A DNA stretch of 64,000 nt from Sphyrna mokarran. Lineage: Eukaryota. The position numbers are program-made. The DNA is taken from the NCBI GenBank assembly GCA_024679065.1, contig JAGIQG010000008.1:65162001-65226000 (forward strand), given 5' to 3'. Position 1 is the first letter of the stretch; the number at the start of each line of letters is the position of its first letter. Below, in pieces: positions 1 through 60,000 of the stretch.

Positions 1-3000
1 TGATGCCATAAGACCTTCGGAAGTTGACATCTTCCTGCTCTGCCCGTCTGAACTCATAATCCAGATTTTGCTTTCACATGCCAAAATTAGACAATGCCAA
101 GTCTTCACTCACAAGGTTCTGACATGGTTTTTGTCTCCTGTGCCCAGTGATGTTAAGCAAAGCGTCAGTGACTGACGCGAAGTAAGATCAAAGTTATTGT
201 GGTCAAACTCAGATTTGTAATTGTTTCATGGTCAATTTCCTGGTCACAATACATGACACAAATATAAATAAGACAAAAGGATCTCCTGAAATGTATTTTT
301 ATACCCTCTATTTTGCTACATTTATTTGAGTAAATATTGGTCCTGTGTGGCTGCATCCAACATTTCCATGTGTTTTTTTCAGAGAAGACGTATTAGACGC
401 AATATTGGTACAATGTTTCCTCTTTCTGGAGCTTCTTCGGTTTTGCTCACTTTGGTCTTCTGCAAGAATGGGTCAACACTGCAGCATCCATTTCGCTCTT
501 CACCTCTTCCCTTAAACCTGATTGCAATGTTCCATTTCCATTTACAAATCAAACACAAACACCAGCATGAAGAGTTCACAACATAACTCAAATTCTAGAA
601 TCATGAATGCGATAAGAACAAATGAAATACTCAGACTCTCATATTGCCAGTTATATTTCACATAAACATGACCATGAATTTGAATAAAAGTCTTTCTTCA
701 TTGTTCACATTCAGCACTTCTCACTGCACCTGTCTCTCAAAATATGCGATGCTGTCATTTTTGAGGTGAACTGTGGATAAATATAACATCTTCCTGAAGT
801 TTTCCGGAATGAAAACTAAATTCTTCAAATGCATTTTGTCTTACAGGGCAGGCTATAGTCACGTCAAGAAGATCAGGCCTCTGTAACTTCACTCTATGTA
901 CTAAGAGTTGTGACGTTTTGAAGTACACAGGAAAATGTCAAACTACTACAGCTCCCACCACTCCACTCGAAACGACAACAACAGTAACAGTAACTCCCAG
1001 CACTCCAGTATCAACAAGTTGCACCTGCACAGCCAATGGAGAAATATTATCACCAGGTAAGTGCATTAGATTCTGACAATCTGCTGCAATTATTCGTCAT
1101 GCTGTTAAACTGATCACACTGGCTGCAAAGATCCAGATCAATTATGAAGGCAAATCACCTCTCCTCTCCATTAGATTGTCCTACGCAATTTGGATGCTTG
1201 TCTTAAGCATTCTGTAGATGTTTGGAGAAATAATAGTAATAAAATCTCTCATCCCGGCATTTCCAAAATTGATCTGTCTGCTCTCTAAGCTTAAAAATGA
1301 AACGTTAAGAGCTTTAGGAAGTTGACACTTTCCTGCTTTGCCCGTCTGAACTCGTACTCCAGATTTTGCATTTACATGCCAAAAGGAGACAATGCCAAGT
1401 CTTCACTCACAAGGTTCTTCCATGGTTTTTGTCTCCTGTGCCCATTGATGTTAAGCAAAGCCTTTGTGACTGACGCAAAGTAAGGTCAAGTTATTGTGGT
1501 CAAACTCAGATTTGTAACTGTTTCATGGTCAATTTCCTGGTCACAATTCAAGACACAAATATAAATAAGACAAAAGGATCTCCTGAAATGTATTTTCATA
1601 CCTTCTCTTTTGCTACATTTATTTGAGTAAATATTGGTCCTTTGTGGCTGCATCCAACATTTCCATGTGTTTTTTTCAGAGAAGTCGTATTAGACGTAAT
1701 ATAGGTAGAATGTTTCCTCTGTCTGGAGCTTCTTCTGTTTTGCTCACTTTGGTGTTCTGTAAGAATGGGTCAACACTGCAGCATCCATTTCGATCTTCAG
1801 CTCTTCCCTTAAACCTGATTGCAATGTTCCATCTCCATTTAATCATCAAACACAAACACCAGCATGAAGAGTTCACAACATAACTCAAATACTACAATCA
1901 AGAATGCGATAAGAACAAATGAAATACTGAAATTCTCATATTGCCAGATATATTTCACAGAACCATGACCATGAATTTGAACTGAAGTCTTTCTGCATTG
2001 TTCACATCCAGCACTGTTCACAGCACCTTTCTCTCAAACTATGCAATACCATCATTTTTGTTGTGAACTGTGGATAAATATTTCAACTTCGTAAAGTTTT
2101 CAAGAGTGAGAACTACATTGTTCAAATGTATTTTGTCTTACAGGGCAGGCTGTAGTCACATCAAGTAGATCAGGCCTCTGTAACTTCACTCTATGTACTA
2201 AGAGTTGTGACGTTTTGAAGTACACGGGAAAATGTCAAACCACTACCGCTCCCACCACTCCACTCGAAACGACAACAACAGTAACAGTAACTCCCAGCAC
2301 TCCAGTATCAACAAGTTGCACCTGCACAGCCAATGGAGAAATATTATCACCAGGTAAGTGCATTAGATTCTGACAATCTGCTACAATCATTCGTCATGCT
2401 GTTGAACTGATCAAAACTGGCTGCAATGATCCAAATCAAATATGTATGCAAATCACCTCTTCTCTCCATTAGATTGTCCTACGCAATCTGGATGCTTGTC
2501 TTAAGCATTCTGTAGATGTTTGGAGAATTAGTAGTAATAAAATCTCTCATCCCGGCATTTCCAAAATTGATCCGTCTGCTCTCTAAGCTTAGAAATGACA
2601 CGTTAAGAGCTTTAGGGAGTTGACATCTTCATGCTTTGCCTGTCTGAACTCATAATCCAGATTTTGCATTCACATGCCAAAAGTAGACAATGCCAAGTCT
2701 TCACACACAAGATTCTTACATGGTTATTGACTCCTGTGCCATTGATGTTAAGCAAAGCATCGGTGACTGACGCAAAGTAATGTCAAAGTTATTGTGGTCG
2801 AACTCAGATTTGTAATTGATTCATGGTCAATTTCCTGGTCACAATGCATGACACAAATTTAAATAAGACAAAAGGATCCCCTGAAATGTATTTTTATACC
2901 CTCTCTTTTGCAACATTTATTTGAGTAAATATTGGTTCTTTGTGGCTGCATCCAACATTTCCATGTGTTTTTTTCTGAGAAGTCATAGTATACGTAATAT

Positions 3001-57000: not shown

Positions 57001-60000
57001 AAGAAGTGTAAGTAATGGACATGCCAGTCAGAATGACCTCTCTGTAATCTATATCTATTATACCTTAATGAATTTTTGTGGGAAAATATTGGGAACAATT
57101 GGACTGTTATTCGAGTCAGTGATTGGGCAGTTTTATTTTGGGGGTAGTTTTAACTGAAGGCAAGGGAGGGAAATGTGGTGTGTGAAGTGATTGAGTTAAA
57201 TGGAAGTTTCAATTTCCCAATATTTTGATTGAGGTGCAGAGATGAGGTCAGCCACATGTCTACAGCCTCATGGTATCCTTGGCATGTTCCGACTTGTGGC
57301 ACATTTGCATTGCATGAATATTCATCAGCATACAATCTTTTTTAATGAGATTATATCTTCGGGTTATGTCTGAGATCAGTGGTCTGGGAGAGGAATGGCA
57401 GCTTGCATGGAGGCTCGGGGTGATAAGGGTCAGTAAGAAATGAGGGGAGAGGATAAAGGGTGGAATTAAGGGCATGGTTAGCAGTATTGCCTCACAGAGC
57501 CAGGGACCCAGGTTCATTTCCTGCCTTGGGTCACTGTGCAGATTAGGATTGGCCATGGTGAATGGATGGATTTGTGGGATAGGTCAGGGGGGGCAGGGGT
57601 GGTCCTGGGTCACGTGCTTTCAGAGAGCCAGTGCAGATCTGTTGGACTTAAATGGCCTCCTGCTGCACTGTAGGGATTCTATGGTTTCACGGTGGAGTAA
57701 GGACTAATGTCCTGGGTGAGAGGTAGGTGTGTAAAGTAGTTAGGGCAGTCAGTCAACGGGCTTAAAAGGAAGTGACAGTACTGTCCAAATGTGAATTCAT
57801 ATCAAGGTGTCAACATTTACTTAAGGGATTTGACCCTTTATTCCTCAAAAGGAACCGAAGGGTCTAATGTGAACTCCACAGAGGAATCTCCCAGGAATTG
57901 GAGTGGGGTAGATGGAAGATCACAACAGCCCCCATTGCAAAGATCTGGCCTAAATAACACATTGAAATTCATATCCTGGGCTTCCATCTGTCTTCAGCCA
58001 CAGGAATTCAATAAATTGTATATTACAAAAATTGTATTTGTCTTTTGTTTCTGCAAACCACAGGTGAATGAAATTTGGAAGCTTGACAATTGTACAATGG
58101 GAATCTGTACAGGGAACAACACTGTGTCTATAATACCAATGAAATGTCCACCTGTTACTTCAATTACCTGTGAAAATGGACTGCAACCCAAAAAAGTCTA
58201 TGACCAATCTGGCTGTTGCTATCAGTATGAGTGTGACTGTGAGTATTGGAAGAATTGCACTGCCAAAATTGAATAGTGATGCAAAAGATAAGAGATGAAG
58301 AATATTGTAGCATGTGATTCACCACTCCATAGCAGACATTGCCTATTCTGCAATATTAATATCAATATTACATAATATTTATGAGAGAGGTCATAACATG
58401 TCCAGAGATATATATTTTTCATCTTTATGGAAACTGGGTTTCTTTGGTTGGCCAACATTTATTGCCCATCCCTAGTTGCGCGAGAACATTCAAAAGTCAA
58501 CTACATTCTGTGGGTCTGGTGTTACATGTAGGCCAGAGCAGATAAGGATGGCAGATTTCCTTCCCTAAAGGACATTAGTGAACCAGATAGGTTTTTCCAA
58601 CAATCGACAATGGTTTCATGGTTGTCAGTAGATTCTTAATTTCGAACATGTTTTATTGAATTCATATTCCACCATCTACTGTGGCAGGTCCCCAGAACAT
58701 TAGGTGAGTTACTGGATTAATAGTCCAACACTAATACCACTAGGCCATACCTTTTCCTCCTACCCCTAAATATAGAGACCTATCACTGGTAGGAAAGTTA
58801 ATAGGGGCAATTCTCCCATCCCACCGCACTACTTTTCTAGTGCATCAGGCCAGGAGAACCATGTTTGGATGGTTTGTGGGATTATGCATGCATCCCTAAT
58901 GCGCGAGCATTTCCAAGCGCTGGATAGCCGGCACAGTTGGGACCACTTTGAAAACTGGAGAGACCAGCAGGTAAATAATTTTAATCTTACTTTAGCATTA
59001 CCTAAATGCCATTATTGGGCCCAGGACTGAAGTCTCCAGGCCCGACAGCGTCTCCCACCCGATCTGTACAATTTCACTCTAGCAAGATTTATAGATCCCC
59101 ATTTTTGAGGAACTAGTGGGACACCCTGCTGGAATGAGAGGACAATCATGGCTCCCCAGGGGACTGGGTGGTGGTGGTGGGGGGGGGGGGGGAGGTGCCC
59201 CTTTGGCATAGGGACCTGGGTAGTGCCAGCCTGTTTCCCCAGCAGTGGCTAAGTGGCAAAGTGCCCATGCCCAGAGGGCACCTTGGCACTACCCACCAGG
59301 CATCAGGCAGTACTAAGGAGACAGAGCCAACAGGCTGTTGTCTGGGGGCAGAGTTTAGGGATAATTGTGGGGAGAATGGGGAGTATTCCGTTATTGGGCC
59401 ATGTGGAGTGATGGAGGGGTAGCACGGTGGGGGTCCCAGGCTGGCTAGCAATTGAGTTGGCCAACAAATAAGGAGACCTTCAGATCGGGGCCACTGTGCA
59501 TGATTCCCCCACCTCCCCCCTCCACTGCCACCTGAGTGTTTTTTTAATGAGACTCGCGATTGTGACCTCTGCATTGCACAGATTGGGGAGATTCAGGTCT
59601 GAAGCTGCATTGAAAGATAGTCATGATCTAGACCAGTTTTCCACCAATTTAACACTTTTGGGAGAATCACCCCCAACCTGATTGCATCATTTTGAGGAGA
59701 TAATAGAGAGGAGACAAAAGATGTAATTTAACTGGATTTTCAGAAGACTTTTGATATGGTGCTCCACATTGAACTAATGAATAAGGTCAGAGAATGTTGA
59801 GTCAGAGGACAAGTAACTGAATTGCTAGCTGGTTGAAGGCAGAAAGTAGAGAATGACTGTAAAGGGTAGTTATTCAGAATGGCAGAGGTGGGAAGTAGTG
59901 TTCCACAAAGATCAGTGCTATATCCATAGCTATTCACAGTTCATATAAATGATTTGGGCTTTGGAATCAAAACACTAAATTTGTGGATGACATCAAATTT

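Follow-up and report, generated by a model that had tools for sequence, protein, structure and literature searches.

Can the central region of a gel-forming mucin be assembled, exon by exon, from many copies of one small cysteine-rich module? This question is raised by a 64,000-nucleotide stretch of the Sphyrna mokarran genome (GenBank assembly GCA_024679065.1, contig JAGIQG010000008.1, forward-strand positions 65,162,001 to 65,226,000), hereafter the window, which has a base composition of ~39% G+C and zero N. We consider it very probable that the window covers the 3' portion of the central region, together with the beginning of the C-terminal region, of an elasmobranch mucin of the MUC2/MUC5 type, and that the centre of this mucin was built by amplification of an exon of the six-cysteine module preceding D4 (the pre-D4 module).

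The repeat exon array

Spacing of k-mers in the window has its maxima at 1298 bp and multiples thereof. BLASTN, using exon 1 with 20-nt flanks as the query and the window as the target, returned 39 tandem copies on the plus strand at 92-100% identity, from 847-1056 through 53358-53567 (Table 1). Tandem Repeats Finder reported no array, because the unit of ~1.3 kb, composed of one exon and an intron of roughly 1.09 kb, exceeds the longest period handled by the program (500 bp). Units are spaced at 1297-1300 bp in the first 24 copies and at 1282-1300 bp up to copy 35; beyond it, the intervals are 1960, 1551, 2499 and 2470 bp. Each of the 39 exons is bounded by an AG acceptor and a GTAAGT donor, reads without a stop codon in the phase-1 frame and is symmetric (phase 1 in, phase 1 out). 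With a length of 210 nt in 38 exons and 207 nt in copy 38, they sum to 38x70 + 69 = 2729 codons, the same count that a first-pass annotation of the window had given. Upstream of exon 1, window bases 9-846 correspond to the 3' part of a repeat-unit intron (90.6% identity to intron 1 positions 250-1087), so the array extends beyond the window on its 5' side and comprises at least 39 copies.

Read 5' to 3', each repeat exon encodes the 30 residues that end one module, a 27-residue linker and the 12 residues that open the next module, with a glycine encoded by the split codon at the junctions. The unit is therefore 70 residues long, consisting of a module of 43 and a linker of 27, 20 of which are proline, threonine or serine (P/T/S). 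The first-pass annotation was right about the 43 residues and the 20 P/T/S, while its 26-residue linker is one residue too short. The cysteine spacing that it gave, C-x-C-x21-C-x4-C-x3-C-x8-C, is seen in 39/39 copies with all six cysteines kept. An N-F-T sequon is likewise present in all 39, and the unit contains no tryptophan.

The copies are under coding constraint, because exons diverge about threefold less than introns and the ratio of nonsynonymous (pN) to synonymous (pS) differences is 0.25. Copies 1-35 have a mean pairwise identity of 97.5% in their exons and 92.8% in the intervening introns (diversity 0.025 vs 0.0725), and the 38 variable exon sites fall mostly on third codon positions (23, with 11 on first and 4 on second positions). 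Pooled over 38 copies, pS is 0.064, near the intron diversity, and pN is 0.016; pN/pS lies between 0.21 and 0.28 for the linker and for either half of the module. Exon 39 shares 92% identity with exon 1, compared with 72-73% between its flanking introns and intron 1.

These figures bear on whether the exons are cassettes, in which case the array would be coding, but the number of units could vary among transcripts and be reduced, leaving the mature mucin well short of 39 beads. The symmetry of all 39 exons, by which any subset stays in frame, fits such use, as do the 2 to 37 units held by orthologue models, perhaps only a limit of assembly or prediction. However, consensus splice sites and open frames in all 39 copies, together with the low pN/pS, are as expected if most copies are translated, and exon 39 is conserved far above its introns. 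We regard cassette use on this scale as possible, if rather unlikely.

The array is dynamic, with its oldest copies at its edges. Identity between nearest-neighbour introns rises to 99.4%, at lags of 2 to 8 units, compared with the mean of 92.8%. Two zones are visible between 847 and 45088: copies 1-24, with periods of 1297-1299 bp, mix S-R-R-S-G and S-S-R-S-G, and copies 25-35 have S-S-R-S-G only. In the second zone, periods are 1282-1300 bp (most commonly 1284 or 1300) and the closest relatives, with intron identity up to 99.4%, are 2 to 7 units off, mostly 3 or 5, a similarity pattern that points to recent duplications of blocks of several units. The introns following repeat exons 35-38 are enlarged by four insertions; their remaining sequence matches the repeat intron at 87-91% in introns 35-37 and at 72-73% in intron 38.

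Mucin identity and origin of the module

Window sequence was searched one exon at a time. Unique exons 40-42 follow the array, with compatible splice phases across all of their junctions. Exon 41 matched the MUC2 chains 7qcl_A, 7qcu_A and 7qcn_A with E-values (E) of 2e-12 to 3e-11 using phmmer, and exon 42 covers positions 1-75 of the 156 in the Pfam VWD profile (E 1.5e-18). Exon 40 is collinear with predicted proteins of Scyliorhinus torazame (P0004), Cetorhinus (P0009) and the bamboo shark (P0002). It displays each of the features for which it had been singled out beforehand, namely a phase-1 acceptor, the C-x4-C-x3-C-x8-C spacing, a shared K-Y and a short proline-, threonine- and serine-rich (PTS) stretch. 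The terminal module copy, formed by the 3' end of exon 39 and by exon 40, lies directly upstream of the VWCN exon. Exon 40 and other shark terminal modules share an I-Y...D...G-W-C motif with the single copies of bony vertebrates; internal repeats have lost this motif and gained N-F-T. With exons for VWCN (E 2e-12) and VWD (E 1.5e-18) following the array, the gene reads as a gel-forming mucin of the MUC2/MUC5 type, as the first-pass annotation had proposed.

The repeated module was also correctly distinguished there from CysD. Mucin2_WxxW (PF13330) was found neither in the exons nor in P0007 and P0008 (Carcharodon, Leucoraja), it is absent from the precomputed domain lists of P0005, P0007, P0008, P0009 and P0011, and the module has 43 residues, six cysteines and no tryptophan. 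No Pfam family matched the module in searches with the window exons and the orthologues P0002 and P0004, and DUF7210 (PF23843, gathering cutoff 27 bits) was matched by neither the repeat exon (E up to 10) nor P0002 (E up to 1). Single exons were uninformative as queries because each holds only half-modules: repeat exons gave no informative Pfam match, and exon 40 gave only a weak match among solved structures (E 0.43). Complete modules for structure searches were thus taken from natural proteins in which modules are contiguous.

A hidden Markov model (HMM) built from 42 modules was run on 124 proteins, with two hits in 63 (60 of them non-elasmobranch), one hit in 6, three or more in 9 (6 elasmobranch) and none in 46. 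In the 60 non-elasmobranch proteins with two hits, one copy is at the end of D3 and the other is pre-D4, the latter ending 86-147 residues before the VWD4 motif in 55; the downstream motif was not found in the other 5. Lungfish and coelacanth proteins have a single six-cysteine copy between the PTS and VWCN, and the six cysteines are invariant or nearly so in a 13-protein alignment. A second HMM, derived from internal elasmobranch repeats only, reached 2 of 115 proteins at E 0.01 and was then rescored on extracted segments. It favoured the pre-D4 over the post-D3 copy in 53 of the 60 proteins (mean 20.6 vs 12.8 bits), and the C-x4-C-x3-C core occurs in 43/60 pre-D4 copies vs 0/60 post-D3 copies. 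These comparisons support the view that the repeat corresponds to the small module sitting once just before VWCN/D4 in other vertebrates, and they bear out the paralogy to the pre-D4 module that had been suggested for it. In many MUC5/MUC2-like mucins (e.g. P0034, P0066, P0077), the PTS region is bracketed by a five-cysteine copy after E3 and a six-cysteine copy before VWCN.

The module could instead derive from its relative at the end of D3, after E3. Sequence searches show a paralogous module following E3: the terminal module of P0002 (residues 105-168) best matches residues 394-458 of the MUC5AC D3 construct 8qsp_A (E 3.4e-8), and residues 7-71 of MUC2 6tm2_E were matched at E 0.12. However, no solved construct was matched upstream of VWCN, so the PDB offers no pre-D4 counterpart to compete with these. 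The Cetorhinus orthologue has a separate five-cysteine post-E3 module besides its array. With the internal-repeat HMM comparison in the 60 proteins also pointing to the pre-D4 copy, we set a post-D3 origin aside as improbable.

An established name for the six-cysteine pre-D4 module was not found. The name CysX, which the first-pass annotation ascribed to structural work on the MUC2 C-terminus, has 0 occurrences in the accessible part of PMC10082768, where the structure begins at VWCN. E3 of MUC5AC could not be modelled according to the accessible part of PMC11933400.

The fold was predicted using AlphaFold2 on P0002 with a 13-row alignment. The model has two modules of five strands each (2 + 3), with a block-mean predicted local distance difference test (pLDDT) score that is 92-94 in the terminal and 68-82 in the internal module and falls below 50 in linkers. 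A fibronectin type I-like fold, as known from the E modules of VWF and mucins, consists of a small hairpin and a three-stranded sheet held by disulfides. Foldseek aligned it with 3cal_C (E 0.01, probability 0.97) and with 3mql (root-mean-square deviation 2.5 over 46 columns). Pfam fn1 had no match in the window exons or in P0002 and P0004.

Orthologues and comparable arrays

The same unit of ~70 residues is found in predicted proteins of Heterodontus, Carcharodon, Cetorhinus, Leucoraja, Pristis, Chiloscyllium, Scyliorhinus and Narcine. All proteins returned by a search with the repeat exon are from elasmobranchs (Narcine, Chiloscyllium, Scyliorhinus torazame and one ENA protein at 94% identity). 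The S. torazame protein as the query recovered full-length proteins predicted as 'mucin-2-like' or 'mucin-5B-like' in Heterodontus, Carcharodon, Leucoraja, Cetorhinus and Pristis. Module counts by regular expression were 37 in Heterodontus, 20 in Leucoraja, 11 in Carcharodon, 9 in Pristis and 2 in Cetorhinus, and orthologue consensus units are identical to the window unit at 54/69, 53/69, 39/69 and 36/66 residues. P0007 and P0008 have 4-5 VWD stretches, 4 C8, 3 TIL and VWC, and P0004 runs on through D4 and C8. A knot-like cysteine-rich end can also be seen by eye in P0004, unscored.

Between D3 and the array, the orthologues hold 200-640 residues of plain PTS (64-80% P/T/S), and because of this the mucin appears to have a brush ahead of its beads instead of consisting of beads only. 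The array of beads that the first-pass annotation described is borne out, but its claim that beads stand in place of a continuous bottle-brush was overstated.

In a tree of C-terminal regions, four proteins with the array fall into a single clade (Shimodaira-Hasegawa-like approximate likelihood ratio test [SH-aLRT] 100) with the ray outside the sharks, which fits one orthologous gene predating the shark-ray split. This tree was built from 29 chosen rows, 5 of which were dropped for lack of the cutting motif, and with no verified mammalian MUC2 in the set it did not separate Muc2 from Muc5 orthology. The best non-elasmobranch matches to P0004 are mostly named mucin-5AC, at 34-48% identity.

Public models at this locus are faulty in P0001 (Narcine), P0004, P0009 and P0003 (ENA), each with a different fault: fusion to a DHHC palmitoyltransferase, run-on into an unrelated downstream protein, read-through of an intron, and an open reading frame (ORF) over intron and exon. 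Although long tandem arrays are error-prone and some neighbouring blocks are up to 99.4% identical, an array produced or over-expanded from a shorter repeat by the assembly is very improbable in view of the ~7% intron differences between units, the distinct variants, the four different intron insertions, the zero N, and the 20-37-unit arrays that were independently predicted from genomes of other elasmobranchs.

Scanning all 1.84 billion representative proteins with P0002 (E up to 0.001) gave 93 matches, many with several matched stretches, among which were further elasmobranch-like arrays (P0125-P0127) and arrays in Xenopus tropicalis (P0136, UniRef F6RMB8_XENTR; P0216, 'intestinal mucin-like protein'). 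The Xenopus mucins resemble the shark gene in having tandem C-x-C...C-x4-C-x3-C...C modules with very short PTS linkers, a 60-70-residue period, and an array succeeded by a terminal module, VWCN and VWD4. The Xenopus modules are, however, 28-36% identical to the shark ones over the matches, and the Xenopus arrays P0133 and P0216 score 29.6-31.1 bits against DUF7210 (cutoff 27), a family that the shark unit does not match. The architecture of small-module arrays is not unique to this genome or to sharks. Because Xenopus modules form their own clade with the Xenopus terminal module (SH-aLRT 99, in a 44-column tree with long-branch warnings), their sequences suggest a separate amplification. Arrays of a related four-cysteine module (G-C...G-K-x-Y-x-P-G...W-C-Y-G...C) with PTS linkers and 71-102-residue spacing were seen in P0128, P0134, P0139, P0141 and P0144, the last of which, from the chiton Liolophura sinensis, matches Pfam Fn1_2 and DUF7210. 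On the evidence of these sequences, small beads resembling fibronectin type I (FN1) may be widespread in mucin-like chains.

MUC5AC/MUC5B/MUC2-type mucins of bony vertebrates have the pre-D4 six-cysteine module, short PTS, VWCN and VWD4 in the same order, and they share D1-D3, C8, TIL and VWC with the shark and ray orthologues. They differ in that the pre-D4 module occurs once (60 proteins), compared with at least 39 times in the window gene. Furthermore, the shark gene lacks CysD (Mucin2_WxxW) and has one repeat unit per exon, whereas mammalian mucins have a single giant central exon. CysD is a domain of about 100 residues with 10 cysteines. Like the shark module, it is folded, disulfide-rich and spaced along an O-glycosylated rod, but the shark module has 43 residues, six cysteines and no tryptophan, recurs every 70 residues and is predicted to adopt a different fold of five strands, perhaps FN1-like. 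According to the accessible parts of two studies, CysD has a conserved WxxW and is interspersed in the PTS of MUC2, MUC5B and MUC5AC (PMC4948705), which have 2, 7 and 9 copies, respectively (PMC11933400). Its absence does not disqualify a gel-forming mucin, because only 11 of 26 frog mucins have CysD in the same part of PMC4948705. The fish 'Mucin-5AC' of the lateral-line cupula is, as far as the available text of PMC11765562 describes it, likewise a secreted chain of many cysteine-rich domains (2-27; 27 in skate and 19 in catshark), but its domains are of the CysD type, with no PTS between them and no VWD or VWC, and it belongs to a different family.

Two further observations concern the introns among the downstream exons. 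Between exons 39 and 40, a run of ORF fragments resembling a decayed retroelement lies on the minus strand (54057-55545); the six of its ORFs that were searched had nothing better than E 0.04 against Pfam, and none of these matches was retroelement-related. Between the VWCN and VWD4 exons, 59079-59288 reads as a proline run on the minus strand and as a glycine run on the plus strand.

Table 1. Positions of array and flanking features in the window
Feature	Position	Strand	Evidence
3' part of repeat-unit intron, array continuing upstream	1..846	+	bases 9-846 match intron 1
Repeat exon 1 (210 nt, phase 1 in/out)	847..1056	+	BLASTN, splice sites, frame
Repeat exon 2	2144..2353	+	BLASTN, splice sites, frame
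Repeat exon 3	3442..3651	+	BLASTN, splice sites, frame
Repeat exon 4	4740..4949	+	BLASTN, splice sites, frame
Repeat exon 5	6038..6247	+	BLASTN, splice sites, frame
Repeat exon 6	7336..7545	+	BLASTN, splice sites, frame
Repeat exon 7	8634..8843	+	BLASTN, splice sites, frame
Repeat exon 8	9933..10142	+	BLASTN, splice sites, frame
Repeat exon 9	11230..11439	+	BLASTN, splice sites, frame
Repeat exon 10	12527..12736	+	BLASTN, splice sites, frame
Repeat exon 11	13825..14034	+	BLASTN, splice sites, frame
Repeat exon 12	15123..15332	+	BLASTN, splice sites, frame
Repeat exon 13	16421..16630	+	BLASTN, splice sites, frame
Repeat exon 14	17719..17928	+	BLASTN, splice sites, frame
Repeat exon 15	19017..19226	+	BLASTN, splice sites, frame
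Repeat exon 16	20314..20523	+	BLASTN, splice sites, frame
Repeat exon 17	21612..21821	+	BLASTN, splice sites, frame
Repeat exon 18	22911..23120	+	BLASTN, splice sites, frame
Repeat exon 19	24210..24419	+	BLASTN, splice sites, frame
Repeat exon 20	25508..25717	+	BLASTN, splice sites, frame
Repeat exon 21	26806..27015	+	BLASTN, splice sites, frame
Repeat exon 22	28104..28313	+	BLASTN, splice sites, frame
Repeat exon 23	29403..29612	+	BLASTN, splice sites, frame
Repeat exon 24	30702..30911	+	BLASTN, splice sites, frame
Repeat exon 25	31986..32195	+	BLASTN, splice sites, frame
Repeat exon 26	33270..33479	+	BLASTN, splice sites, frame
Repeat exon 27	34554..34763	+	BLASTN, splice sites, frame
Repeat exon 28	35854..36063	+	BLASTN, splice sites, frame
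Repeat exon 29	37136..37345	+	BLASTN, splice sites, frame
Repeat exon 30	38436..38645	+	BLASTN, splice sites, frame
Repeat exon 31	39720..39929	+	BLASTN, splice sites, frame
Repeat exon 32	41004..41213	+	BLASTN, splice sites, frame
Repeat exon 33	42304..42513	+	BLASTN, splice sites, frame
Repeat exon 34	43588..43797	+	BLASTN, splice sites, frame
Repeat exon 35	44879..45088	+	BLASTN, splice sites, frame
Repeat exon 36	46839..47048	+	BLASTN, splice sites, frame
Repeat exon 37, acceptor context altered by upstream intron insertion	48375..48584	+	BLASTN, splice sites, frame
Repeat exon 38 (207 nt, one linker codon fewer)	50889..51095	+	splice sites, frame
Repeat exon 39, most diverged; 3' end is first half of terminal module	53358..53567	+	BLASTN, splice sites, frame
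Four insertions enlarging introns after repeat exons 35-38	45777-46432, 48144-48374, 49087-50290, 51463-52659		
Unique exon 40: second half of terminal six-Cys module, short PTS, G-C-P...P-P-R lead-in to VWCN; phase 1 in/0 out	56817..57007	+	
Unique exon 41: VWCN	58064..58238	+	phmmer vs MUC2 chains, splice sites read
Unique exon 42: start of VWD4	62473..62723	+	Pfam VWD, splice sites read

Origin of the array and its meaning for mucins

The central region is proposed to have arisen by tandem amplification of the 1.3-kb unit, a symmetric phase-1 exon with its ~1.09-kb intron. Unequal crossover between introns would add or remove whole units of module and linker in frame, because the exon comprises the second half of one module, the linker and the first half of the next. 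The last module copy, shared between exons 39 and 40, would have retained ancestral sequence character, and the internal copies would have diverged jointly and gained the N-F-T sequon. Polymerisation of the mucin would take place via the D assemblies and the C-terminus. Along the rod at its centre, plain O-glycosylated PTS would give way to 39 or more small beta-sheet beads, probably locked by three intramodule disulfides each and N-glycosylated, with short O-glycosylated spacers and no CysD.

Several points weigh against this account. It presumes serial splicing of all 39 exons, and the public models in which exons of this kind are joined were made by automatic prediction, several with visible faults (P0001, P0004, P0009). 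The N-terminal D assemblies and cystine knot of the window gene would lie outside the window, as judged from orthologues, and Pfam identified VWD and C8 as the only relevant domains in P0004. The fold was modelled on the bamboo-shark protein P0002 and not on the window protein, and its top Foldseek matches in the PDB, pairs of fibronectin type I modules, are weak (E 0.01-0.1, none <=0.001). Lastly, the pre-D4 module appears to be common but not universal among the 124 proteins, since the cysteine pattern upstream of D4 is present in 12 and absent in 34 of the 46 proteins with no HMM hit.

A bolder reading seems doubtful to us: that the six-cysteine module is a new class of mucin domain replacing CysD, a short, N-glycosylated, FN1-like bead serving stiffness, protease resistance, and reversible cross-linking or ligand capture, which underwent separate expansions in Xenopus and in elasmobranchs, in the latter before sharks and rays split, and confers distinct mucus mechanics.

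In the accessible part of PMC4948705, ghost shark mucins comprise Muc2, Muc5, Muc6 and Muc19, and its passages on shark, CysD and tandem do not mention the six-cysteine module. Mucins have been reported in shark skin mucus, with no description of their architecture in the available portion of PMC10707392. A published description of the array was not found in full-text searches of the literature, and supplementary files may hold domain drawings or peptide lists. The array is already present in public predicted proteins and, as far as we found, is apparently undescribed. The array also accounts for the truncated or chimeric automatic models of the locus in several elasmobranch genomes.

Studies of mucin gel properties concentrate on long brushes of PTS, cross-links through CysD and polymerisation at the termini. 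In the shark gene, a small folded module of another kind is placed at 70-residue intervals in a mucin that polymerises, and it has been kept in sharks and rays, where it may affect gel properties. The array offers a natural experiment on bead density in the mucin rod, for which module plus linker is a compact recombinant unit, and it provides a clear case of exon-level amplification building a mucin domain.

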